A DNA stretch of 41,546 nt from Gemmatimonadales bacterium (GCA_035576905.1 DATLWA010000034.1:1-41546), one strand, 5' to 3'. Numbered from the stretch's first letter, positions 11,615-23,137 are shown. Made by a program: numbers and translations. The notes: a model not told the origin generated them from the letters alone.

Positions 11615-11638
11615 GCGTGCAGCCCTCCGGTGGTGAGG

Positions 11639-13030
11639 ATGGCGGATGTGCTTCATCTTATTCCCACCATGGCGCGCGTCCAGGAGCTGCTGCGGTTCTG
11701 GTTCGGGCTGAGCGAGCCCGTGCCGCGGGGCCGCTACTTCCGCCACGGCGCGGCGCTGATGGCGTTCAAGTACGCCGTCGATTCGCTGCTCGTGTGGGGC
11801 GTGACCGGGCACGCCTGGCGCCCATTTGATTACATCAATCCGGTGTGGAGCGTGCGTTCCGCGGCGATCGGGCACATGCCCACCTGGCTCAACCTCGTCT
11901 TCGCGGTGTGGACGCTCCCGTTCTTGTGGATCGGGGTGGCGCTGACGTTGCGACGCCTGGTCGATGCCGGGCGCACGCCATGGCTGTCGCTGCTGTTCTT
12001 CATTCCCTACATCAATTACGCGTTGATGCTGTTGCTGTCCGTCCTTCCCACGGCCGCGCATGCGCCGGCGGTGCGACAGGCCGAGTTCCGGCGCCAGGGA
12101 CAGCTGCTGCGGGAAGCGCTGGTGGGGATCGCGGCGGGTCTGGCGGTGAGCGTGCCGACGGTGCTGATCAGCGTCTTCATCGTGAAGAGCTACTCCACGC
12201 CGCTGTTTCTCGGCACCCCGTTCTCGCTCGGCGCCATCACTGCGTATTTCGTGAACCGCAACGGCCAGCGTTCGCTGGGCGACACGCTGCGGGCGGTGAC
12301 CGCGGGGCTGTTGTTTCTGACGGGCGTGATGTTTTTGTTCGCGATCGAAGGAGTGGTCTGCCTGCTGATGGCCCTGCCGCTGGCGATCGTCGTCGCGGGC
12401 CTGGGCGCGATTCTGGGCCGGGCCATCGCCCGACTCGATCCCGACGCCGCGGCGCCGGCGTCGTTGATGGTGCTGATCCTGCCGGCCCTCACGGTGGTCG
12501 ACGCCCGCGTGGCGCCGCGGCCGCCGCACGAGGTGGTCACCAGCATCGACATCGCGGCGCCACCGCAGCGCGTCTGGGAGAACGTGATACGGTTTTCGGA
12601 CCTCGCGCCGCCCACCGAGTGGCTGTTCCGCGTGGGGGTCGCCTATCCCGAGCGCGCGCGCATCGAAGGCACGGGCGTCGGCGCGATTCGCTATTGCGAG
12701 TTCTCGACGGGCGCGTTCGTCGAGCCGATCACGGAGTGGCGGGCGCCCGAGCGGCTGACGTTCGACGTCACCGCCCAGCCGCCGACGATGACGGAGCTGT
12801 CACCCTACCGGTCGATGCAGCCGGCGCACCTGCGCGGCTACTTCCGGGCCACGCAGGGGCAGTTCGATCTGGTGCCGCTGCCCGGCGGTGGCACACGGCT
12901 GATCGGCACGACGCGCTACGACATCCAGATGTACCCGCAGACCTACTGGTCGCTGCTGGCGGACGCCGTCGTCGGGCGCATTCACATGCGCGTCTTGCGC
13001 CACATCAAGGCGTTGGCCGAGGCGCCCTGA
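11639..13030 (+). CDS. Fusion protein: DUF805-like polytopic membrane domain plus a C-terminal SRPBCC (START / polyketide-cyclase-like) domain
   Basis: The DUF805 signature reads WIGVALTLRRLVDAGRTPWLSLLFFIPYINYALMLLL, and further TM helices follow. The C-terminal ~170 aa (IDIAAPPQRVWENVIRFSDL...LTFDV...GGTRLIGTTRYDIQMYP) looks like an SRPBCC ligand-binding fold. The start is uncertain (GTG 11630, ATG 11639 or ATG 11669). Confidence 0.55.
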   Translation: MADVLHLIPTMARVQELLRFWFGLSEPVPRGRYFRHGAALMAFKYAVDSLLVWGVTGHAWRPFDYINPVWSVRSAAIGHMPTWLNLVFAVWTLPFLWIGVALTLRRLVDAGRTPWLSLLFFIPYINYALMLLLSVLPTAAHAPAVRQAEFRRQGQLLREALVGIAAGLAVSVPTVLISVFIVKSYSTPLFLGTPFSLGAITAYFVNRNGQRSLGDTLRAVTAGLLFLTGVMFLFAIEGVVCLLMALPLAIVVAGLGAILGRAIARLDPDAAAPASLMVLILPALTVVDARVAPRPPHEVVTSIDIAAPPQRVWENVIRFSDLAPPTEWLFRVGVAYPERARIEGTGVGAIRYCEFSTGAFVEPITEWRAPERLTFDVTAQPPTMTELSPYRSMQPAHLRGYFRATQGQFDLVPLPGGGTRLIGTTRYDIQMYPQTYWSLLADAVVGRIHMRVLRHIKALAEAP

Positions 13031-13715
13031 ACAGCGAATCGGCGAGCGGCTTTCCCGTCCTGATGTCGTCGTACTCCTCGAGCCACACCTGGCGGCCGTC
13101 CACCAGGAATTCGACCCGCGGCGACACCCACACTGGCCCCACGGCGCGGTAGCTCTCGAACCGCGTCTCGTTTGTGCGGGTCGTGTCGCGGCGCCCGGGC
13201 TCCAGCATCCGCACGAACACCAGCCGGTCCCGCTCGACCCAAAACTGCTTCGTGCGCAAATCGCCCGCTTTGGCGCCGACGACGTAGACCGGCCGGCCCT
13301 CCCAGCTGTCTTCGTGGACCACGGACAGATCGATGCCCAGTGCTTTCAGTTTCGCGAGGCTCGTCGCGACCGGCTGGGCGTACACATCAAACCCCAGCAC
13401 CATCAATGGATGGATCAGCGCCTCGGCGTGCGCCAGCGTATCGCGGTGCCGGACGTACTCGCTGTCGTTCGCGAACAACAGACCGTTCCCCGAGTCGGGG
13501 AGGAAGTCGATACGCAACCGGCCGGGAATGCGCGCGTCTTCGTGCCACGTGGAGTGCTCCTGGGAGCCGTCGGCCTTGGTGGCCGTGTTGTGCTGCACGA
13601 AGCTCAGCGTCGTATACCACTTGCCGGCGTAACGGTCGTGCATCGCGCGGATCACGTCTGCACCGGTATGAACAGCGGGACCCTGCAGGGCGAGGGCGAA
13701 CCAAAGAACGTGCAT
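13005..13715 (-). CDS. Exported LolA/RseB-like (lipoprotein-carrier fold) protein of unknown function; last gene of the two-component operon
   Basis: 236 aa. AGGAGA sits 7 nt upstream of the ATG and overlaps the response-regulator stop. The pattern GADVIRAMHDRYAGKWYTTLSF...RIPGRLRIDF...LLFANDSEYV is reminiscent of LolA-like half-barrel proteins. The N-terminus is unusually short and uncharged (MHVLWFALALQGP). Confidence 0.45.
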   Translation of the reverse strand: MHVLWFALALQGPAVHTGADVIRAMHDRYAGKWYTTLSFVQHNTATKADGSQEHSTWHEDARIPGRLRIDFLPDSGNGLLFANDSEYVRHRDTLAHAEALIHPLMVLGFDVYAQPVATSLAKLKALGIDLSVVHEDSWEGRPVYVVGAKAGDLRTKQFWVERDRLVFVRMLEPGRRDTTRTNETRFESYRAVGPVWVSPRVEFLVDGRQVWLEEYDDIRTGKPLADSLFRAPRPTP

Positions 13716-13724
13716 ACGTGTCTC

Positions 13725-14417
13725 CTATCGCTCGAGGCGGTAACCTGCCTTGCGAACCGTCAGGATGTGTTTCGGCTGCGCCGCGTCTTGTTCCAACTTG
13801 CTGCGCAGCTCGGCAACGTGCGTGTCCACGGTGCGCGACAGCACGCTCGCGCTGTAACCCCACACTTCGGTGAGTAGCTCGGTGCGCGAGGCGACCGCAC
13901 CCCGGCGCCGCAGCAGCGCGATGAGCAGGTCGTATTCCTTGGGCGTGAGCGTGACGGCCTTGCCGTGCCGCAGCACGGCGCGGGACGCGGGGACCACTTC
14001 CACGTCGCCGAAGCGCTCGCGGTCGGCGAGCGTCGCGGGGACCATCGCCGCCGCTCCGGCGCGGCGGAACAAGGCCTCGACGCGGGCGAGCAGCTCGAGC
14101 ACGCCGAAGGGTTTGGTGACGTAGTCGTCCGCGCCCAGGCGCAGGCCGCGCACCTTGTCGCCTTCTTCGCCGCGCGCCGTGAGCACGAGGATCGGCAGGC
14201 GCCGGCCCTCGTCGCGCAGCGCCCGCAGCACGCGGAAGCCGTCCATGCCCGGGAGCATGAGGTCGAGGATGATGAGGTCGGGTCCGGCGGTGCGCGCCAG
14301 GGCGAGTCCGCGCGTGCCGTCGCCCGCGACGTCGACCTTGTAGCCCTCGATCTCGAGATTGTTGCGCAGGCCGTAGGCGAGATCGGCGTTGTCTTCGACC
14401 ACCAGCACGCGCTTCAT
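13725..14417 (-). CDS. OmpR/PhoB-family response regulator
   Basis: ATG at 14417 gives MKRVLVVEDNADLAYGL. The receiver Asp lies in DLIILDLMLPGMDG, and KP occurs in YVTKPF. The winged-helix region contains LTPKEYDLLIALL and ends in LTVRKAGYRLE. The start overlaps the kinase stop (ATGA). Confidence 0.9.
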   Translation of the reverse strand: MKRVLVVEDNADLAYGLRNNLEIEGYKVDVAGDGTRGLALARTAGPDLIILDLMLPGMDGFRVLRALRDEGRRLPILVLTARGEEGDKVRGLRLGADDYVTKPFGVLELLARVEALFRRAGAAAMVPATLADRERFGDVEVVPASRAVLRHGKAVTLTPKEYDLLIALLRRRGAVASRTELLTEVWGYSASVLSRTVDTHVAELRSKLEQDAAQPKHILTVRKAGYRLER

Positions 14418-16024
14418 ACGGGCACCTCGATCACGAAGCGCGCGCCGCCCGTCGGCGCATCCTCCACCCACGTGCGGCCGCCGTGCAGCTCGGCCAGCTC
14501 GCGCACCACGGCGAGGCCGATGCCCGTGCCGGCCACCGCCGAGCCGCGGTCGCGCTGCAGCCGCCAGAACCGCTCCCAGATGCGCTCGCGATCACCCTGC
14601 GGCACACCCGGTCCCTCGTCGTCCACCAGTACGCGCGCGCTGCCGTTCTCGGCGGCGAGCACCACGGCGATGCGCTGGCCCTCGGGGCCGTATTTCACCG
14701 CGTTGTCGAGCAGGTTGATGAGCATCTGGCGCAGCGCGTCGGCGTCGACGGGGGCTACGACATTGGCGCCCTCCGGCGCGACGATGCGCATGCGCCGCGC
14801 CGCCGCGATCGGCGCGAAGTTCTCGACCACTTCGCACACCAGCGGCGCGAGCAGAGTGGGCGCCGCATGGATTTCGGTGATGCGCCGCTCGGTGCGCGAG
14901 AAGTGCAGCAGGTTCTCGACCAGGTGGGTGAGGCGGCGGGCCTCCTGGTCCATGATTTCGATCGAGCGCTGGCGTTCTTCGTCGGAGCGTACGCGGTCGA
15001 GCAGCAGGGTCTCCGAGAACATGCGGATCTGCGCCAGCGGCGTGCGCAGCTCGTGCGACACGCTGGAGACGAAGTCCGACCGCAGCCGCGACAGCTCGTA
15101 CTCGCGGCGCAGCTGGAACAGGGCGGCGGCGATCAGTCCGGCGGTGAGAATGAGCAGGCCCAGCGTCAACGGCAGGCGCGAGCGCGGTAGCCCGCCGATC
15201 ACCAGCTTGCCCGCCATCTCCGGGCGCAGGGCGATCTCCACGCGCATCCGTCCGGCCATCACGTCGACCGTGTCGCGCGCGGCGAAGTCGGACTGATACT
15301 GCACAGCGGTGCGATACAGCTCGCCGCCCGCGCCGTCGACGATGCGTACCGAGCCCATCGAGTCGTACACCACGCCGTGCGTCAGCGAGGGCGGCAGCAG
15401 CGGCGCGCTCTCCACCGTGAAGCGCACGAACGGCATGATGGCGTCGGCATCCACGTCGGCGCCCGTCGCCACGATCACCGCGCCGTCGGGCGCGCGATCG
15501 AACGTGTACAGAATCACGTGCCCGCGGGCCGGCCCCACGCCGATCACGCCGCCCATGCGCCATTCCTTGGGCAGGCGCGACTCGGCGATGAGCCGCAGCG
15601 TGTCCACGGCCCAGGCCGCGATCTGATCGGGGATGCGGCCGCGCGACTGCAGGCGGCGGGTGCGGAAGTCGTAACGGTAGGTGGCGAGCGTGCGGCGCAC
15701 GAACTGGCGGGTCAGCGCCTCGGTGTCGGCGGGCACGAGCGTGCGCGGGTCGGGCAGCGCGCCGCCGCCCTTGGCGACGCCGCGCCGCACCGCGTCGAGT
15801 TCGGGCACGAACCCGTAGAACCAGAGCGTCTGGCCGAGCCGCATGGCGAGGCGCGCGGCGGCGTACTGGGAGTAATCGCCCAGCACACGCTCGGCGGTGG
15901 CGCGGTGGTAGGTCACGGCCATCTGCGCCTGCACGGCCAGCAGGACGGCCACGAGTATCGCGCCGACCAGCAGCAGCGCCACGAAGGCGCCGCGATCGCG
16001 CGAGCCGAGCCGCCGCCCCGTCAT
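14414..16024 (-). CDS. Sensor histidine kinase (two TM helices, ~260-aa periplasmic domain, HisKA + HATPase_c)
   Basis: ATG at 16024 gives MTGRRLGSRDRGAFVALLLVGAILVAVLLAV. The H-box is SVSHELRTPLAQI, the N-box is INLLDNAVKY, G1 is VDDEGPGVP and G2 is GTGIGLAVV. The 127 upstream codons of the track ORF overlap the MBL gene and are rejected. Confidence 0.9.
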   Translation of the reverse strand: MTGRRLGSRDRGAFVALLLVGAILVAVLLAVQAQMAVTYHRATAERVLGDYSQYAAARLAMRLGQTLWFYGFVPELDAVRRGVAKGGGALPDPRTLVPADTEALTRQFVRRTLATYRYDFRTRRLQSRGRIPDQIAAWAVDTLRLIAESRLPKEWRMGGVIGVGPARGHVILYTFDRAPDGAVIVATGADVDADAIMPFVRFTVESAPLLPPSLTHGVVYDSMGSVRIVDGAGGELYRTAVQYQSDFAARDTVDVMAGRMRVEIALRPEMAGKLVIGGLPRSRLPLTLGLLILTAGLIAAALFQLRREYELSRLRSDFVSSVSHELRTPLAQIRMFSETLLLDRVRSDEERQRSIEIMDQEARRLTHLVENLLHFSRTERRITEIHAAPTLLAPLVCEVVENFAPIAAARRMRIVAPEGANVVAPVDADALRQMLINLLDNAVKYGPEGQRIAVVLAAENGSARVLVDDEGPGVPQGDRERIWERFWRLQRDRGSAVAGTGIGLAVVRELAELHGGRTWVEDAPTGGARFVIEVPV

Positions 16025-16032
16025 GCCGGAGT

Positions 16033-16929
16033 CTAATGCTTCGACAGGTCTTGGAACAGGATTTCCACGAGCCGATCGGGCGTCATGTTGCCGTGGTTCC
16101 ACTGAGCGTCGAAGTCGGCGGTGGGTTTCGCCGCCTTGACCTGATCGAGCGTTTTCCCGCGGCGGATGGCGGCGCGCACGCGGTCGCGCACGGTCGCCAG
16201 CATGTCGCGGAACGCTCTCAGCGCCACGCGGTCGCCCAAGGGTCCGTGGCCGGGGATGATCTTGGTGGCGGAATCCGCCATTGCGAGCATGCGGTCCGCC
16301 GCGCCCACCATGCCGTCCACCGAGCCGCCGGACGACAAGTCGACCAGCGGATACAGGCCATTCCAGAACGTGTCGCCGGCGTGAATGACGTTGGCGTGCT
16401 TCCACCGGATGATCACATCGCCGTCGGTGTGCGCGGGCGGGACGTGGAAGGCCTCGATCGAATCGCCGTTCAGGTAGAACGTCACCGCGTCGCTGAACGT
16501 CACGACCGGCAGCGCGATCGTGGGCGAGGCGCGGACCGTGTCGTGTATGGCGGCCACGAACTGGTCCACGCTCATGCGACGGCGCACGTTGTCCTGCGCG
16601 ATGATCAGCACGCCCGAGCGGGCGAACGTCTCGTTCCCGCCGGTGTGGTCCCAGTGCCAGTGCGTGTTGAGAATGAACCGGATCGGTCCCGAGTCGATCG
16701 CCGCGACGGCCGCGCGGATCTTCGGCGCCAGCGGCGCGAATTGGTCGTCGACCAGGATCACGCCGTCCGCGCCGGCCGACACGCCGATGTTCCCGCCCGC
16801 GCCCATCAACATGTAGACGCCGCTCGCGATCTTGAGCGTGCGCACCTGGACGGTGTCGAAATTGCGCTGGGCGGCGAGCAGGCCCGGCAGCGTGAGGGCG
16901 ATGCAGGCGACGAGGCGGCGAACGATCAC
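16033..16929 (-). CDS. Secreted MBL-fold metallo-hydrolase
   Basis: GTG start at 16929 is preceded by AGGAG. The signal peptide reads MIVRRLVACIALTLPGLLAA|Q. The zinc motif is LNTHWHWDHTGGN (HxHxDH), with later IHAGDTF and IIPGHG ligand-type motifs. Confidence 0.8.
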   Translation of the reverse strand: MIVRRLVACIALTLPGLLAAQRNFDTVQVRTLKIASGVYMLMGAGGNIGVSAGADGVILVDDQFAPLAPKIRAAVAAIDSGPIRFILNTHWHWDHTGGNETFARSGVLIIAQDNVRRRMSVDQFVAAIHDTVRASPTIALPVVTFSDAVTFYLNGDSIEAFHVPPAHTDGDVIIRWKHANVIHAGDTFWNGLYPLVDLSSGGSVDGMVGAADRMLAMADSATKIIPGHGPLGDRVALRAFRDMLATVRDRVRAAIRRGKTLDQVKAAKPTADFDAQWNHGNMTPDRLVEILFQDLSKH

Positions 16930-16957
16930 GAGTAGCTCCTGGCTGGCGGCTGACGGC

Positions 16958-18442
16958 TCAATTCACGGTGAGATCGAATGCCCCGGTCAGAATCCGTCCG
17001 CCGCGCCGCACCTGCACCCACATGCGATAGCGGCCGGGGCGCGGGAACGAATACGGGAAAGTCAGCGCGGGCGCCATCCCCGCCATGGCGGCGTGCGCGG
17101 CGGTGTCCTCGAAGGCGGTGATGCGCCGGCCCAACGTGCCCGGCGTCGTGTCGCCCGGCTGCCGCAGCTGAAAGACCAGCTGCGACGCCGTCGCGATCGT
17201 GCCGAGCGGATGGAGGTGGATGAAGACCGATCCGTCAGCGGTCGCGATCACCGCGTGCGCCGCCATTCCCATGTACGGCTCGAGCGCCACAGCGCGTCCA
17301 TCCCGCCCCACGACCGCGAAGAGCAGCTCGACGTCCTGTCCCGCGAGCAGGGGCTGCGAGTCCCAGCGCATGATCGACCCGTCCGCCAGCGTGTCCTGCG
17401 GCTGACTGACCGTGGCGGGCTGATGGCTCTCCCACCAGGCGTCGTCCGGATCGGATGGGCGCCACGCCGTAACGGGGGCGGCGATTGCCACGGTGTCGAC
17501 CAGCGTTTGCGCGAACCCGCTTTCGTGCACGACGTCGGCGTACACGCGGTAGCGGCCGGGCGGGAGCGGCGGCAGCGCGGCATTGAAGATGTTCGAGTCC
17601 TTCGCCACGGGATGGAGATGCGCGAAGGCGCTCGCATCGTCGCGGATCAGGAAGAGGTGCATCAGCTTGCCGTGGTCCGGAATCAGCGGCGTCCAAGAGC
17701 GGCGGCTGGTCCAGGTGGAGTCGTCGATCGTGAAGCGGATCACCCGGCTCGCGCCTTCCGCCTGGATGTGCGTGGCTGCATGCAGCGGTCGGAACATGTT
17801 GCGGCTGTAGTCCGCGTCCTCCGCATTCCACCACGCACGCCCGCCCCACAGGGCGACGACCAGCACCACCGCGCCCCCCGCCATCACGACACGAGCGCGC
17901 CGCCGGCGCGCCGGGTCGGCTTCCACGCCCGGATCGAGCACGCTGTCGCGGGCCGCGGCGCCCACGATGGTGAGCGCGCCCACCGTCAGGAACAGGCCCA
18001 GGCCGATCATCATCGCGCGCAGGGTGAGATCGAACGGCAGGCGCCGCGTGGCGACCGCCATCACCGGCACGATCACCGTGCCGCGCCCGCCGGCGCCGTC
18101 CACGGTGACCTGCACGCTGTAGGAGCCGAACTGCATCAGCCACAGCTGCGCCGTGTACAGGTCGCTCGTGCCCGCGACCGCACGCGCCGTGTCGGCGGGC
18201 GGCAACGCGGCCGTGCCGCGCCCGCCGCGCAGCGGCAGCACGGTGATGGTCTGCACGGCTGGCCCGCCCGTCGTGCGTACCGTGATGTCGGCGAGTCCGG
18301 GCACGACGCCCGGCAGGCGGACGACCACGCGCACGGCGTACGGACCGGCTGCTCCCTCGAACACCGTGTCGGGGCTGCCGACGTGCGCCGAGGCGACGGC
18401 GACAACGGCGGCGAGTAAGAGGAACCGCCCGAGGCGGCGCAT
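16958..18442 (-). CDS. Uncharacterised bitopic envelope protein: exported N-domain starting with His, a TM hairpin, and a duplicated H-x12-H-x-H module
   Basis: 494 aa. The signal peptide ends ...AVASA|HVGSPD. Hydrophobic helices lie at aa ~143-163 and ~186-200. Two homologous ~90-aa modules read GKLMHLFLIRDDASAFAHLHP...PPGRYRVY (H262/H275/H277) and GMAAHAVIATADGSVFIHLHP...RPGRYRMW (H396/H409/H411). The ATG directly abuts the upstream stop (TAAATG at 18445-18440). Confidence 0.6.
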   Translation of the reverse strand: MRRLGRFLLLAAVVAVASAHVGSPDTVFEGAAGPYAVRVVVRLPGVVPGLADITVRTTGGPAVQTITVLPLRGGRGTAALPPADTARAVAGTSDLYTAQLWLMQFGSYSVQVTVDGAGGRGTVIVPVMAVATRRLPFDLTLRAMMIGLGLFLTVGALTIVGAAARDSVLDPGVEADPARRRRARVVMAGGAVVLVVALWGGRAWWNAEDADYSRNMFRPLHAATHIQAEGASRVIRFTIDDSTWTSRRSWTPLIPDHGKLMHLFLIRDDASAFAHLHPVAKDSNIFNAALPPLPPGRYRVYADVVHESGFAQTLVDTVAIAAPVTAWRPSDPDDAWWESHQPATVSQPQDTLADGSIMRWDSQPLLAGQDVELLFAVVGRDGRAVALEPYMGMAAHAVIATADGSVFIHLHPLGTIATASQLVFQLRQPGDTTPGTLGRRITAFEDTAAHAAMAGMAPALTFPYSFPRPGRYRMWVQVRRGGRILTGAFDLTVN

Positions 18443-19609
18443 TTAACGCTTCACCCGCGTCATCCAGTTGCCCCACGCCAGGCCGATGCGCGCCGACAGC
18501 GTCCCCAGCAGCGCCGCCACGGGCAGCCACAGCGCCGGGCTCCTGGCTCCCAGGATGCCGTCTGCGGTATTCCAGAACTGATGCTCGAACGGGCCGGGGC
18601 GAGAACTGTAGTCCCAGCGGCTCGCGCCGAACAAGAACGTCTCGGAGCGAGAGGAAATCAGGAACGGTGCGACCGTCCACTGCACCACGAACAGCACGGC
18701 GACGAACACGACGCCCACCGCGAGCGCCTGCACCCAATCATTCGCCCGGCCGCGCAGCCGGTGCGTGACCAGGTCCACGCCCAGCGCGGGGATCACCAGC
18801 AGCATGGGGAATGGCGGCGGCACCATGTGGGTGACCGATCGGTAAATCGGCGCGAGCCGCGCCGTCGCCGGGAACAGCTGCAAGATCCACAACATCAAGA
18901 GCGTGACGGCCATGTACACGACGGCCGTTGCCGTGGCGGGCCACGCAAGCCGCGAGGCGCGCGCGGCCGCGACGAGGAACAACAGCACGCCGAACGCCGC
19001 GACCTGATAGTAGAGCGCGTTGTGCATGTCGTTGGCGAACGCGATCTGGTTGAAGCCCATGATCGTCACGTTCGTGACCAGCAGGCCGGCGGCGTACACG
19101 AACATCCACTTGAGCGCGGGCGGCGGCGGACCGGCGGAGCGGTTCTGCAGCGCCAGCGCCATCAACAGGGCGCCGAGCTGGATGCCGGTGAAGCCCAGCG
19201 CCAGCAGCACGTGCGGCGGCGACAGCACCTTCACGTCGAGGCCGTAGGCGTTGTGCCACCAGTTGTCGAACGGCGCGCTCGTGATCATGGCGAACGCGCC
19301 CCAGATCGCCACCCACGCGCCCAGCGGCCCGCGGAATCCCCAGAACCGCACGCCCGCCGCGCGCTCCTCGGGTGTGCCCGCGAACGTGGTGCGCAACACG
19401 AGGAAGCCGCACGCGCAGCCCGCCAGCACGCCGCCGAGATAGATGGCCATGTGGGCGGGCGTCCAGAACGTGTCGCGCCCGATGGTGCGGTGCCACGAGA
19501 TGTCCCAGATCACACCGACGACGGTGCTCGTCGCGGCCAGCAACACGGCGCTGAGGTACCAGGGAACGGGAGCGGTGGTGCGGGGGTCGGGTGCGGTGGC
19601 TGCGGTCAT
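18443..19609 (-). CDS. Uncharacterised polytopic membrane protein with four conserved-looking His motifs
   Basis: 388 aa with about 10 predicted TM helices. The motifs WDISWH, TPAH, DNWWH and SPPH all fall in the first ~140 aa near helix ends. It is the first gene of the minus-strand run. I recognise no family. Confidence 0.6.
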   Translation of the reverse strand: MTAATAPDPRTTAPVPWYLSAVLLAATSTVVGVIWDISWHRTIGRDTFWTPAHMAIYLGGVLAGCACGFLVLRTTFAGTPEERAAGVRFWGFRGPLGAWVAIWGAFAMITSAPFDNWWHNAYGLDVKVLSPPHVLLALGFTGIQLGALLMALALQNRSAGPPPPALKWMFVYAAGLLVTNVTIMGFNQIAFANDMHNALYYQVAAFGVLLFLVAAARASRLAWPATATAVVYMAVTLLMLWILQLFPATARLAPIYRSVTHMVPPPFPMLLVIPALGVDLVTHRLRGRANDWVQALAVGVVFVAVLFVVQWTVAPFLISSRSETFLFGASRWDYSSRPGPFEHQFWNTADGILGARSPALWLPVAALLGTLSARIGLAWGNWMTRVKR

Positions 19610-19667
19610 GCGACGATCCTCTCGGTGACGAGCAAAGCTACGGACGCCGCTCTGGCGCGTCTACCAG

Positions 19668-19689
19668 GCGCGGGCTATCCTAGCCGCGC
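19668..19689 (+). promoter_or_regulatory. Leader hairpin 22 nt upstream of the OFA transporter start (function unknown)
   Basis: gcgcgggcta tcc tagccgcgc forms a 9-bp stem with one bulged G and a 3-nt loop, inside the 102-nt divergent spacer 19610-19711. Confidence 0.3.
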
Positions 19690-19711
19690 ACCGTCATTGC
19701 GGAGACGCTCG

Positions 19712-21127
19712 ATGGCCGGCTGGCTCGCCAAGCAACGGATTGTCGCGCAGCCCGGTTTCAATCGCTGGCTGGTGCCGCCCGCCGCCCTCGCCATTCATCT
19801 CTCCATCGGCATGGCCTACGGGCTCAGCGTGTTCTGGCTACCGCTGTCGCGCGCGATCGGGATCACCGCGCCCGCGGCCGGCGACTGGAAAGTCAGCACG
19901 CTCGGCTGGACGTTCTCGCTGGGCATCGTCTTCCTGGGACTGTCCGCCGCGGTCTTCGGCCGCTGGCTGGAGCGCGAGGGCCCGCGCAAGGCCGGTGTCG
20001 TCGCGGCGTTCTGCTGGGGCGGCGGCTTCGCGATCGGCGCCCTCGCGGTCCGCCTCCACAACATCTGGCTCCTCTACCTCGGCCTCGGCATCATCGGCGG
20101 CTGCGGGTTGGGGCTGGGCTACATCTCACCCGTTTCGACGCTGATCAAGTGGTTTCCCGATCGCCGCGGCATGGCCACCGGCATGGCGATCATGGGCTTC
20201 GGCGGCGGCGCGATGATCGGCTCGCCGCTCGCCAACATCCTCATGAACCACTTCAAGACGGCGACGTCGGTGGGCGTGGAGGAGACGTTCCTCACGATGG
20301 GCGCCATCTACTTCGTGGCGATGCTCGCCGGCGCGTTCGGCTACCGCCTGCCGCCGCCCGGCTGGCAACCCGCCGGGTGGACCCCGCCGCCGCAAGCCAA
20401 CGCGATGATCACCAAGCGGCAGGTGCACGTCGATCAAGCGTGGCGCACGCCGCAGTTCTGGATGCTGTGGGTCGTGCTGTGCATGAACGTCAGCGCGGGC
20501 ATCGGCGTGATCAACATGGCGTCGCCGATGCTGCAGGAGGTGTTCGGCGGCCGGCTCGTCGGCGCGATCGGCACGCTCAAGGATCTCAGCGACGCGCAGA
20601 AGGTGCAGGTCGCGACGATCGGCGCCGGCTTCGCGGCGCTCCTCAGTCTGTTCAACATCGCCGGCCGGTTCTTCTGGGCGTCGCTGTCGGATTACATCGG
20701 CCGCAAGCGCACGTATTTCATCTTCTTCTCACTCGGCATCGTGCTGTACGCGCTGGCCCCGACGGCGGGCGCTGCGGGCAGCGTGGCCCTGTTCGTGGCG
20801 ATCTTCTGCGTGATTCTCACGATGTACGGCGGGGGCTTCGCCACCATTCCCGCCTACCTCGCCGACATGTTCGGCGTGGTGCACGTCGGCGCGATCCACG
20901 GCCGCCTCCTCACCGCGTGGTCCACCGCCGGCGTGCTGGGTCCGGTGCTGGTGAACTACCTGCGCGAGTACCAGCTCGGCCACGGCGTGCCCGCCGCCCA
21001 GGCGTACAACACGACGATGTACATCCTGGCGGCGCTGCTCGTGGTGGGGTTCGTCGCGAATCTCATGGTCCGGCCCGTGTCGGAGCGGTACTTCATGACC
21101 GACGCGCAGCTCGCGGCGGTGCGATGA
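19712..21127 (+). CDS. OFA-family (oxalate/formate antiporter-like) MFS transporter
   Basis: ATG at 19712 gives MAGWLAKQRIVAQPGFNRWLVPPAALAIHLSIGMAYGLSVFW. It has 12 TM helices and the conserved FPDRRGMATG loop between TM2 and TM3. The 377 upstream codons of the track ORF are antisense to the preceding gene. Confidence 0.8.
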   Translation: MAGWLAKQRIVAQPGFNRWLVPPAALAIHLSIGMAYGLSVFWLPLSRAIGITAPAAGDWKVSTLGWTFSLGIVFLGLSAAVFGRWLEREGPRKAGVVAAFCWGGGFAIGALAVRLHNIWLLYLGLGIIGGCGLGLGYISPVSTLIKWFPDRRGMATGMAIMGFGGGAMIGSPLANILMNHFKTATSVGVEETFLTMGAIYFVAMLAGAFGYRLPPPGWQPAGWTPPPQANAMITKRQVHVDQAWRTPQFWMLWVVLCMNVSAGIGVINMASPMLQEVFGGRLVGAIGTLKDLSDAQKVQVATIGAGFAALLSLFNIAGRFFWASLSDYIGRKRTYFIFFSLGIVLYALAPTAGAAGSVALFVAIFCVILTMYGGGFATIPAYLADMFGVVHVGAIHGRLLTAWSTAGVLGPVLVNYLREYQLGHGVPAAQAYNTTMYILAALLVVGFVANLMVRPVSERYFMTDAQLAAVR

Positions 21128-21231
21128 CGCGGCGCTGGGTGACGGTCGCCGTGGCTTGGGCCCTGGTGGGAATCCCCTTGTGCTGGGGCGTCTACAAGAC
21201 GCTGCAGACGGCGGTCAAGCTGTTCCGGTAG
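21124..21231 (+). CDS. 35-aa single-TM peptide translationally coupled to the OFA transporter (MFS small-subunit type)
   Basis: An ATGA overlap with the transporter stop occurs at 21124-21127. The product is MTRRWVTVAVAWALVGIPLCWGVYKTLQTAVKLFR, with one TM helix and a basic tail. Similar mini-ORFs follow OFA transporters in other genomes as far as I recall. Confidence 0.5.
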   Translation: MTRRWVTVAVAWALVGIPLCWGVYKTLQTAVKLFR

Positions 21232-23137
21232 CCGGCCGGTCCACGACGTAGGCTTCCATCGCGTAATACTCGGGCAGCCCCAGCCGGTCGGCGTGGGCGG
21301 CCGTCTCGAGATTGCGCGCTTCCACCCGCTGCCAGAACTCGCGGTCGTCGTGCCCGCCGGGGAAGGGTGCGGTGTCTTTCTGCGATTCGTGGCGGAAGAT
21401 CGCCATGACCTTGGCCCGCAGCTCGTCCTGCGACAGCGGCACCAGCACGTCCGCTTCCGTGAGCGACCACTCCTGCCAGGCGCCGCGATACAACCAGATG
21501 GCGGGGCGCGGCGGCGTGAGCCGCTCGAGCGCGCGGTCGATCGCCACTTTGCACATGCGGTGCGTGCCGTGCGGGTCCGACAAGTCGCCCGCCACGAACA
21601 CGTAGTCGGGCCGCACGTCCGCCAGCAGCGCCGCGACGATGGCCACATCCGCCTCTGCGACGGGCCGCTTGCGCACCTCGCCGGTGCGGTAAAACGGCAG
21701 GTCGAGAAAGCGCGCCGCCGAGCGCGGCAGGCCCGCGGCCTCGAGCGCCGCGATCGCCTCGGACTCGCGGATCACTTTTTTCAGGGTCTGCACCAGCGGC
21801 GTGTCGACGTCGCCGGGCGCTTTGCGCTCGAAGCCCCCTTCGACCTCCGCGCGCACGGCGCGCGCCCGCTCCGCATCGAGCCCCAGCGCGGCGGCCGCGC
21901 GGTCCACGAAATCGAGATGGCGCTCCACGTCGTGATCGAACACGGCGATGTTGCCGCTCGTCATGTAGGCCACCACCACGGCGTTTTCGTTGTCCCACAG
22001 CTTGCGCAGCATGCCGCCCATCGAGATCACGTCGTCGTCGGGATGGGGCGAGAAGACGAGCACGCGCTGCCGCATCGGCAGCTTGGAGCGGCCGCGGATC
22101 TTGTCCTTGAGCCGGTTGAACACCTCGCCGTTGATGGGGCCGGGCGCGCCGTACTTCGCGAGCAGCGGCCCGAGATGGTGCTCGCTGTAGTCGCGCGCCG
22201 TGAGCTTGAGAATCGCTTTCCCGGTGCGCTCGGCGAGCCATACCACCGCGCGCTCGACCAGCGGCGGCGTCCACGTCACGCTCTCCAACAACCAGGGCGT
22301 GTTGACGCGCGTCAGCTCGGCTGCCGCGGCAAGGTCGAGGTACACGGTGGCGTTGGGGTGGCGCTGCAGGTACGTGGCCGCGACGTCGGCGGAGACATCG
22401 CCTTCCACGGCGCGGCGCACGATCTCGGCCTTGTGCTCGCCCGTCGCGATCAGCGCGACCTCGCGCGCCGCGAGAATCGTCGCGACGCCCATCGTGACGG
22501 CCTCGCGCGGGACGTTGTCCTCGCCGAAGAAATCGGCCGCCGCGTCCTTGCGGGTGATGGCGTCGAGCCGCACCAGACGCGTGCGCGAGTCCGCCGCCGA
22601 GCCCGGCTCGTTGAAGCCGACGTGCCCGCTCTTGCCGATGCCGAGCAGCTGGAAGTCGATGCCGCCGGCGTCGGCGATGGCGCGCTCGTAGGCGGCGCAA
22701 TGCTCGGCCAGCTGCTCGCGCGGCACGGCGCCGTCGGGGATGTGCACGTGCGCGGGCGGGATGTTCACGTGGGCGAAGAAATTCTCCCACATGTAGCGCC
22801 GGAAGCTGCGTGGGCTGTCGGGCGCGATCGGGTAGTACTCGTCGAGATTGAACGTGACGACGCGGGCGAAGTCCACCTCGCCCGCCTCGTGGCGGCGGAT
22901 CAGCTCCTGGTAGACGCCCAGCGGCGTACTGCCCGTGGCGAGGCCCAGCACGCAGCGGCCCTTGGCGGCGGTCTCGCGCTCGATCGTCGCGGCGATGCGG
23001 TCGGCGAGCAGGCGGGCGAGGTCGTCGTGATCGGGCAGGATGACGGTGGGGATGCGTTCGCGGTCGCGAGCGCCCTCCACGAACGCGAAGGGCCCGCGCC
23101 GCGCGCGGGCCCCCGAGACCGAATCGCGTGCGTCCAT
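21215..23137 (-). CDS. nagB: Long-form glucosamine-6-phosphate deaminase: NagB domain fused to a C-terminal LmbE/PIG-L-type deacetylase domain
   Basis: 640 aa. The NagB-like half contains LGLATGSTPLGVY, FNLDEY and LLGIGKSGHVGFNEPGS. The LmbE-like half contains VLVFSPHPDDDVISMGG, VAYMTSG and DLSDPHGTHRMC. Confidence 0.8.
   Translation of the reverse strand: MDARDSVSGARARRGPFAFVEGARDRERIPTVILPDHDDLARLLADRIAATIERETAAKGRCVLGLATGSTPLGVYQELIRRHEAGEVDFARVVTFNLDEYYPIAPDSPRSFRRYMWENFFAHVNIPPAHVHIPDGAVPREQLAEHCAAYERAIADAGGIDFQLLGIGKSGHVGFNEPGSAADSRTRLVRLDAITRKDAAADFFGEDNVPREAVTMGVATILAAREVALIATGEHKAEIVRRAVEGDVSADVAATYLQRHPNATVYLDLAAAAELTRVNTPWLLESVTWTPPLVERAVVWLAERTGKAILKLTARDYSEHHLGPLLAKYGAPGPINGEVFNRLKDKIRGRSKLPMRQRVLVFSPHPDDDVISMGGMLRKLWDNENAVVVAYMTSGNIAVFDHDVERHLDFVDRAAAALGLDAERARAVRAEVEGGFERKAPGDVDTPLVQTLKKVIRESEAIAALEAAGLPRSAARFLDLPFYRTGEVRKRPVAEADVAIVAALLADVRPDYVFVAGDLSDPHGTHRMCKVAIDRALERLTPPRPAIWLYRGAWQEWSLTEADVLVPLSQDELRAKVMAIFRHESQKDTAPFPGGHDDREFWQRVEARNLETAAHADRLGLPEYYAMEAYVVDRPATGTA

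Follow-up and report, generated by a model that had tools for sequence, protein, structure and literature searches.

The copper sites of PmoC/AmoC (PF04896) are now favored as the active site of the methane and ammonia monooxygenases, the copper membrane monooxygenases (CuMMOs). To our knowledge, no relatives of PmoC/AmoC have previously been described outside these enzymes, and no PmoC-like families outside the CuMMOs are described in the literature searched. The copper ligands of PmoC are Asp156, His160 and His173 at the CuC site, where Arg165 forms hydrogen bonds, and Asn227, His231 and His245 at the CuD site, while the CuB site of PmoB (PF04744) consists of the N-terminal His33 and the His137-x-His139 motif (PMC12576850). 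Other copper proteins with an N-terminal His occur in the CopC/CopD and YcnI/YcnJ systems, which are two-gene modules found in variable contexts and combine a periplasmic copper-binding beta-sandwich with a polytopic membrane protein bearing His residues; CopC binds Cu(II) via its N-terminal His, and CrdA is a relative of CopC/PcoC (PMC9182242). Here we compare with these systems a pair of genes found in a 41,546-nucleotide stretch of DNA from a Gemmatimonadales bacterium (GCA_035576905.1, DATLWA010000034.1:1-41546), the whole of which is called the window below. Six minus-strand open reading frames (ORFs) extending from position 19609 to position 13005 were named g1 to g6 in the order of transcription. 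The first, g1 (18443..19609, minus strand), encodes a 388-amino acid integral membrane protein with 10 long helices, and the second, g2 (16958..18442, minus strand), a 494-amino acid periplasmic multi-domain partner anchored by a transmembrane (TM) hairpin. The best reading of this pair is that of a predicted complex of copper proteins, which faces the periplasm and uses a PmoC-type scaffold.

Conservation and Organization of the g1-g2 Pair

A previous reading of the window, made from its sequence alone (the sequence-only reading), had described the six genes as a single collinear envelope operon, in which two uncharacterized proteins rich in His motifs and a metallo-beta-lactamase (MBL) fold hydrolase were tied to a dedicated two-component system in a metal-handling (possibly copper) or redox module. 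The six ORFs, their coordinates and their junctions were all found as described. The synteny of the six genes was analyzed by running tblastn searches with the six proteins of the window against the 80 best loci carrying g1 relatives, which belong to the Gemmatimonadota (43 loci), Acidobacteriota (28), Verrucomicrobiota (4), Eisenbacteria (3), and Methylomirabilota (2). In all 80 loci, and hence in all five phyla, g2 is located immediately downstream of g1. The TAA stop codon of g1 directly abuts the ATG start codon of g2 in the window, and a median of 60 nt (75 loci) separates the g1 stop codon from the codon for the His predicted to be N-terminal in mature g2: the signal peptide of g2 therefore begins at the g1 stop codon. 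The g1-g2 pair forms an autonomous module of two translationally coupled genes, which is conserved in five phyla, and the six-gene operon described previously has to be corrected in this respect, the relevant unit being the two-gene pair. Synteny outside this genome, which had been set beforehand as the point that was to decide on the integrated six-gene system with its dedicated kinase and MBL protein, is lacking in the case of four of the six genes: the pair is present in 80/80 loci, as against about 7 for the two-component system and g6 and 0/80 for the MBL gene.

Both families are very large. About 8000 word-matched homologs of g1 were obtained, and the g1 profile comprises 2386 representatives at 50% identity, with relatives in at least 578 species genomes. 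The Gemmatimonadota predominate among the members of the g1 and g2 families, which are labeled "hypothetical protein" in the sources. No family was found for g1, g2, or g6 in Pfam and NCBIfam, and neither these two databases nor the searchable literature contain a description of the g1-g2 family. The sequence-only reading had likewise been unable to place g1 and g2 in any characterized family; the resemblance of the core of g1 to PmoC/AmoC, which is presented below, had gone unrecognized.

The surroundings of the pair vary from one phylum to another. The 150 ORFs flanking it yielded 121 Pfam families, each of which occurs in at most five ORFs, and no conserved third partner gene was found by Pfam around the pair in the 80 loci. 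Among the top 25 families listed for these 150 ORFs, the PmoA (AMO), Monooxygenase_B, cytochrome, and copper-chaperone families do not recur near the pair, and no reductant or downstream-pathway gene is conserved there. Contrary to pmoC and amoC, g1 thus has no pmoA or pmoB neighbors in the 80 loci, judging from the flanking families listed, and does not belong to a CAB operon; genuine pmo/amo operons were available for comparison in the loci L083 and L087. A different arrangement was observed at L084:270-3403, where an orphan partial pmoC/amoC ORF lies beside DsrE, GDT1, HvfC, and MbnB/TglH-family genes, i.e., in a cluster of the peptide-modification type, and not beside pmoA/pmoB.

The pairing extends to a divergent g1 subfamily showing about 30% identity, the members of which are still followed by a downstream g2 homolog, with a 4-nt overlap. 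An apparent g1-g2 fusion in L011 was rejected, as it corresponds to a 51-N scaffold gap. At L021:187-2778, g1 and g2 are present in a single uninterrupted ORF with zero Ns, in which g1 stops short within its last helix and continues in frame with the end of the signal peptide of g2 (...SARLAALPPIALVAAVHVGSPD); this single ORF could be either a natural fusion or an assembly or curation artifact.

The PmoC/AmoC-Like Core of g1

The four His motifs reported previously in g1 (WDISWH, TPAH, DNWWH, and SPPH) are all present in its translation, and the AlphaFold2 model contains 10 long helices (predicted local distance difference test score [pLDDT] 78, predicted TM-score [pTM] 0.84), in line with the approximately 10 TM helices announced. 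D36, H40, H53, D115, H119, H133, and H196 are invariant in 34 relatives showing at least 60% identity, so that the conservation of the motif His residues, which the earlier reading had proposed to check, was borne out in these relatives. Based on the comparisons described below, residues ~17-157 of g1 (19139..19561, minus strand), which form two duplicated two-TM hairpins, are a remote homolog of the metal-binding core of PmoC/AmoC.

Several methods contributed to this assignment (phmmer, Pfam, hhalign, and hidden Markov models [HMMs]). In a phmmer search of the PDB, g1 matched subunit C of an ammonia monooxygenase (9cl6_C, E = 0.009) over g1 residues 36-148, the DISWH...TPAH and DNWWH...SPPH stretches of g1 being aligned with DASWH...TPSH and NEWGH...APLH, respectively. 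When 58 diverse relatives of g1 were scanned one by one against the 24,736 Pfam models (E <= 10), a sub-threshold match with AmoC was obtained in 13 of them (best E = 0.0011), and any other family was matched by two members at most. The hhalign comparisons between g1 alignments and an alignment of bona fide AmoC/PmoC fragments gave probabilities of 87% and 84%; the search seeded with an AmoC fragment yielded fragments only, and several chimeric ones were left out of the alignment. An AmoC-core HMM scored at least 10 bits with 148 of the 270 g1 relatives (maximum 23), as compared with maxima of 6.8 in 540 shuffled or reversed decoys and ~3 in unrelated ORFs from the same loci, and values below 0 bits in the g2 family. 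Reciprocally, a g1-core HMM scored up to 25.5 bits with AmoC fragments, at most 2.9 bits with decoys, and below 0 with PmoA and PmoB.

The four helices that make up the core of g1 lie in its N-terminal part and align with the core located in the C-terminal part of AmoC/PmoC, and the two ligand sets correspond in spacing. The CuC set (Asp-x3-His-x12-His, with an Arg five positions after the first His) is found in g1 as D36, H40, R45, and H53, which are arranged as D36-x3-H40-x4-R45-x7-H53 in site 1 (WDISWHRTIGRDTFWTPAH; 19451..19504, minus strand), matching D156/H160/R165/H173 of PmoC. At site 2 (DNWWH...SPPH; 19211..19267, minus strand), D115-x3-H119-x13-H133 aligns collinearly and with the same spacing as the CuD set Asn-x3-His-x13-His (N227/H231/H245), with an Asp instead of the Asn. 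Hairpin 1 of g1 taken alone matches the CuC region with an hhalign probability of 95.9% (E = 6e-9), and the significant PmoC signal is confined mostly to ~27 columns around this one motif. Hairpin 2 is taken to be the CuD equivalent because of the collinear alignment, the identical spacing, and the detectable duplication of the g1 hairpins (hairpin 1 versus hairpin 2: 92%, E = 6e-7). The latter duplication is not detectable in AmoC, where hairpins A and B (CuC versus CuD) are matched with a probability of only 0.1%. The fact that it is visible in g1 and not in AmoC suggests that g1 may have kept a more ancestral state of the PmoC scaffold, and it could mark the closeness of g1 to the ancestral scaffold that gave rise to PmoC.

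The differences from PmoC/AmoC are also clear. The g1 sequence falls below the Pfam gathering threshold; the protein is 388 amino acids long and has 10 helices with the core in the N-terminal part, whereas PmoC is ~250-270 amino acids long with the core in the C-terminal part. As far as we know, the phyla carrying g1 are not known as methane or ammonia oxidizers, unlike the hosts of PmoC/AmoC. On the strength of these sequence comparisons, g1 is not a member of PF04896 and nevertheless shares its ligand-bearing core, and g2, as described below, would be neither a PmoB nor a canonical CopC.

Fold and Topology of g1

The Arg and Lys counts of the loops favor an N-in topology for g1 according to the positive-inside rule, which would place both ligand sets on the periplasmic side, along with H196 and the conserved Pro-rich loop. 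When the g1 model was compared by Foldseek with 350,542 PDB chains (the output of which does not give the position of the aligned part of g1), the best matches were 9cl6_B and 7s4l_B, i.e., AmoA and PmoA (PF02461; probabilities 1.0 and 0.99, E = 0.024 and 0.075), with target-normalized TM-scores of 0.39 and 0.49 and a root-mean-square deviation (rmsd) of 7.6-8.3 A. The third-ranked match had a probability of 0.14, and AmoC (9leg_C) came only at rank 46. The fold search thus puts AmoA/PmoA first and AmoC 46th, whereas all the sequence methods point to AmoC/PmoC and none to PmoA: the comparisons between g1 and PmoA sequence profiles gave hhalign probabilities of 1.9-3.9% and HMM scores below 0 bits. 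Judging from the model, the C-terminal part of g1, with its six helices, may be either PmoA-like or similar only in the loose sense of a helical bundle; comparisons by hhalign between the C-terminal half of g1 and PmoA, between the N- and C-terminal halves of g1, and between PmoA and AmoC all gave probabilities below 4%. A viral library was also searched with g1, as some phages encode PmoC: Foldseek gave nothing above a probability of 0.10, a result that can be used as a negative control.

The Exported Three-Domain Partner g2

The AlphaFold2 model of g2 (pLDDT 78, pTM 0.73) shows, in this order, a signal peptide, a beta-sandwich (residues 26-127), two helices (139-166 and 177-215), and two further beta-sandwiches (222-320 and 335-493). 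The features on which the sequence-only reading was based, namely ASA|HVGSPD, the H262/275/277 and H396/409/411 triads and the two PGRYR motifs, are all present in the translation, and the two helices correspond to the TM hairpin it had proposed (residues 139-215, with an Arg-rich connecting loop; 17798..18028, minus strand).

The predicted signal peptide (residues 1-19) and the H20 codon (18383-18385) occupy positions 18383..18442 of the minus strand. H20, H257, H262, H275, H277, H396, H409, and H411 are invariant in 64/64 homologs from several phyla, and D256, P389, Y390, G392, and M393 are invariant or nearly so; H306 is present in 50 of these 64 homologs, and no conservation is seen at H221, H225, H340, and H450. 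In the homologs displayed, the stretch immediately before H20 resembles a signal peptide and finishes with small residues (ASA|H, ARA|H, AWA|H, SMA|H), which points to H20 as the predicted N-terminal residue of mature g2. Domain 2 (17483..17779, minus strand) carries D256-H257 and the H262/H275/H277 triad (17612-17659) followed by PGRYR, and domain 3 (16964..17440, minus strand) carries the PYMGM motif and the H396/H409/H411 triad (17210-17257), also followed by PGRYR. The periplasmic domains of g2 therefore contain nine metal-type residues, namely the N-terminal His, D256/H257, and the two H-x12-H-x-H triads, the second of which adjoins PYMGM. As regards the internal duplication claimed previously, the spacing of the triads is indeed identical, and the similarity between the two modules is weak (BLAST E = 3e-4 and 0.017).

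Domain 1 (18053..18382, minus strand) is a CopC/CrdA-like beta-sandwich according to Foldseek and HMM comparisons. The only domain-sized Foldseek match of g2 was with CrdA of H. pylori (9ll2/9ll4), with a target-normalized TM-score of 0.57-0.59, a probability of 1.0, and E ~1e-3, and CrdA was also the only match of the g2 profile in the PDB (E = 0.67, g2 residues 60-121). Like CopC, g2 has a predicted N-terminal His, which is invariant; contrary to CopC, domain 1 has no second conserved His, and g2 is membrane-anchored and includes two extra triad domains. A generic relationship with multi-immunoglobulin/fibronectin type III (Ig/FN3) proteins, suggested by the whole-chain Foldseek search, was set aside in view of TM-scores of ~0.15. 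A permissive Pfam scan of the g2 family gave no meaningful recurrent family and no Monooxygenase_B match.

The layout of g2 recalls that of PmoB/AmoB, where a signal peptide, an N-terminal His, a periplasmic beta-sandwich, two TM helices, and more beta-sandwich also follow each other, and the H-x-H motifs of g2 resemble His137/His139 of the CuB site. These motifs are located, however, in domains 2 and 3 of g2 and not in the N-terminal domain, and g2 has three beta-sandwiches as against two in PmoB. No sequence or profile similarity was detected between the two proteins (hhalign 0.6%), and PmoB is not among the top 50 fold matches of g2.

Possible Functions of the Pair

We put at roughly 0.45 the probability that g1 and g2 form a copper-binding complex in the inner membrane which supplies copper to the membrane or the cell, with g3-g6 as a lineage-specific context. 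The CopC-like N-terminal-His domain of g2 would capture periplasmic copper, which would then be relayed via the two triads of g2 to the PmoC-type sites of g1, and the complex would operate like CopC/CopD or YcnI/YcnJ, on a PmoC-type scaffold. Copper acquisition or hand-off is favored here because the module is autonomous in variable contexts, like copCD and ycnIJ, because g2 resembles a multi-site relay, and because of the divergent g1 subfamily mentioned above (P0295, P0325, P0329, P0332, P0369, and P0374; loci L088:213-3022 and L089:4001-6645). In this subfamily, H40 is replaced by E, D or Q, and H119 and H133 by Q, with D36, H53, and D115 being kept, whereas all eight invariant His residues, including the N-terminal one, are retained in the corresponding g2 proteins; such a pattern is hard to fit with an active site centered on g1. 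The change of ligands may reflect the use of a different metal or the loss of the second site. The previous proposal of a copper or metal envelope module retains its substance in the form of a conserved, His-dependent pair, copper being our best guess for the metal in view of the invariant N-terminal His of g2, the CrdA-like fold of its domain 1, and the CuC/CuD-type motifs of g1; it is not supported as far as the kinase and the MBL protein are concerned as parts of it.

The main rival to copper trafficking is that g1 and g2 may be the two subunits of a copper oxygenase or oxidoreductase akin to the CuMMOs. Catalysis would then take place at the PmoC-type sites of g1, the role of g2, with its copper center at the N-terminal His and its periplasmic beta-sandwiches, would be PmoB-like, and the six extra helices of g1 would replace PmoA. 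The catalytic CuMMOs are the only proteins in which a PmoC-type core comprising both ligand sets and the counterpart of Arg165 is known, the two best fold matches of g1 are AmoA and PmoA, with AmoC also listed, and g2 has the PmoB layout. We nevertheless regard this explanation as doubtful: no homology was detectable with PmoA (1.9-3.9%) or PmoB (0.6%; HMM < 0 bits), the PmoA fold matches have TM-scores below 0.5 and the high rmsd values given above, PmoB is outside the top 50 fold matches of g2, and reductant, cytochrome, and downstream-pathway genes are not conserved nearby. The divergent subfamily also argues against it, as it lacks three of the four g1 His residues and keeps all those of g2. 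We know of no methane, ammonia, or alkane oxidation in the host phyla, which is a further point against an oxygenase. The more specific idea that g1-g2 might be an unrecognized two-subunit relative of the CuMMOs, i.e., a copper oxygenase of the membrane whose active site is of the PmoC type and whose partner is analogous to PmoB, widespread in non-methanotrophic soil phyla, seems to us rather doubtful.

The choice of metal raises another alternative, in which the metal handled by the pair would be Zn, Ni, Fe, or Mn. The pair would then be either an importer of the "anglerase plus permease" type, equipped with a periplasmic capture protein, or a membrane hydrolase requiring a metal. The N-terminal-His "anglerase" domains attached to HupE/UreJ permeases, which bind various metals, share with g1-g2 the concept of an exported metal-capture domain coupled to a membrane protein (PMC12537917); the two systems differ in domains, membrane partner, and phyla, and no homology was detected. 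The recent "signal-strapping" survey of N-terminal-His proteins deals with other families. His/Asp triads are not specific to copper, and the E, D, and Q ligands of the divergent subfamily are typical of harder metals. This explanation is unlikely, however, in view of the fact that the only detectable relatives are copper proteins (PmoC/AmoC in the case of g1, and the CopC-family protein CrdA in that of g2 domain 1), that the invariant Met residues next to the second triad (PYMGM) suit copper, and that the ZIP, HupE/UreJ, NiCoT, and other permease families show no recurring match in the 58 g1 relatives.

Several points weigh against copper hand-off on a PmoC-type scaffold. All the recognized ligands of g1 lie at the periplasmic face, and no transmembrane route is evident; the Pfam matches listed for the 58 relatives (top 25 families) include no similarity between g1 and CopD (PF05425, E <= 10) or any transporter family, so that g1 is not CopD-like in this respect. 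Three His ligands of g1 are replaced in the divergent subfamily, the association of g1 and g2 in a complex is deduced from gene order only, and an enzyme is favored by the fact that PmoC-type cores are known in no other role than catalysis. The link with PmoC is, moreover, a remote one: hairpin 2 alone matches the CuD hairpin of AmoC with an hhalign probability of 0.1%, the g1 protein of the window itself does not match the Pfam AmoC model at E <= 0.1, and a narrow g1-family profile (A1) gave zero matches in the PDB. The resemblance between g1 and PmoC might even be convergent or due to chance, g1 then being an unrelated membrane protein, as could be suggested by the restriction of the significant signal to ~27 columns around one motif, the empty PDB search with the narrow profile, and the rank of AmoC in the fold search. 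This is very unlikely, since four independent methods picked the same family from among 24,736 Pfam models and 177,635 PDB sequences, and decoys and unrelated membrane ORFs scored at most 7 bits, as against 20-25 bits for the true pairs, in both directions.

If the pair does traffic copper, the Gemmatimonadota and Acidobacteriota, which are abundant soil bacteria, would have a new way of handling this metal. As regards the origin of the PmoC scaffold, a large g1 family with the same ligand spacing provides a tractable comparator for the function of CuC/CuD and the evolution of the CuMMOs.

Neighboring Genes and Organization of the Locus

The four genes downstream of the pair are g3 (16033..16929, minus strand), which has a GTG start codon and encodes an exported MBL-fold hydrolase in a variable slot; g4 (14414..16024, minus strand), encoding a sensor histidine kinase (HisKA and HATPase_c); g5 (13725..14417, minus strand), encoding an OmpR-type response regulator (Response_reg and Trans_reg_C); and g6 (13005..13715, minus strand), encoding a 236-amino acid, possibly LolA-like protein. 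The gap is 28 nt between g2 and g3 and 8 nt between g3 and g4; g4 and g5 overlap by ATGA (-4 nt), and the 9-nt spacer between g5 and g6 includes AGGAGA. The Pfam and NCBIfam results agree with the identities previously given to the MBL protein (motif HWHWDH; PF00753, E = 1.1e-15, 58.6 bits with a cutoff of 22.7), the histidine kinase, and the OmpR-type regulator. The LolA-like label of g6 is faint: LolA_like (PF17131) was matched by one out of six orthologs (E = 0.0032), and the protein of the window had no match.

No MBL gene occurs at this position in any of the 80 related loci, including L001, where g1 shows 86% identity. The g4-g5-g6 genes are present downstream of the pair only in L001, L002, L003, L004, L006, L011, and L021, which are close Gemmatimonadales relatives; they are absent in the equally close L007 and L009, and the two-component system is absent in the other phyla. 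The protein g6 follows the regulator in every locus carrying the two-component system, and the kinase-regulator-g6 trio behaves as a unit of its own, linked to the pair in one Gemmatimonadales subclade only. The interval between g2 and the kinase (window 16033-16957) is variable: in the window it houses the MBL gene, in the closest relative it is a 170-nt gap (L001:10657-10827), and in L004, L006, L011, and L021 it consists of 1.2-1.7 kb of unrelated ORFs, some of which a crude ORF call places on the opposite strand. The genes g3-g6 are lineage-specific neighbors and are not part of the conserved system, although the g4 kinase may regulate the pair in this lineage.

It would still be conceivable that all six genes form one co-transcribed envelope metal or redox module under its own two-component system, with the MBL and LolA-like proteins as functional parts. 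The tight spacing (0, 28, 8, -4, and 9 nt), the lack of terminator-like sites above the chance level, and the presence of the kinase, regulator, and g6 genes downstream of the pair in 7 related loci are in favor of this possibility. It is distinctly unlikely, given that the MBL gene is missing from its slot in 80/80 loci, that L007, L009, and all the other phyla lack the two-component system, and that other ORFs separate g2 from the kinase in several loci. In addition, the upstream regions of the loci carrying the two-component system share no motif, only those of the window and L001 being alignable, and no metal-sensor family above the cutoff was found in the sensor domain of the g4 kinase.

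The region has a G+C content of ~69%, and the G+C content at third codon positions (GC3) is near 0.9 in all the genes. A foreign origin of the MBL gene, considered on the basis of its composition, was rejected, its GC3 value of 0.92 being native-like. Scans of the cluster for promoters and terminators gave no signal above chance, and an Rfam scan gave zero matches. The flanking genes are not copper-related: they encode a major facilitator superfamily (MFS) transporter, a NagB-LmbE fusion, a phosphoenolpyruvate (PEP) mutase family protein, a DUF805-SRPBCC protein, and an M28 peptidase. A divergent intergenic region of ~100 nt (19610-19708), the sequence of which is kept only in the closest relative L001, separates g1 from the MFS transporter gene (19709-21127, plus strand). 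At the other end, the ORF at 11630-13030 (plus strand), which encodes a 466-amino acid protein with a DUF805 membrane domain and an SRPBCC (Polyketide_cyc2) domain, converges on g6, and the 3' ends of the two genes overlap by 26 nt (13005-13030). The NagB-LmbE protein is a 640-amino acid fusion (21215-23137, minus strand) between a glucosamine-6-phosphate isomerase/deaminase domain and a PIG-L (LmbE-type deacetylase) domain.

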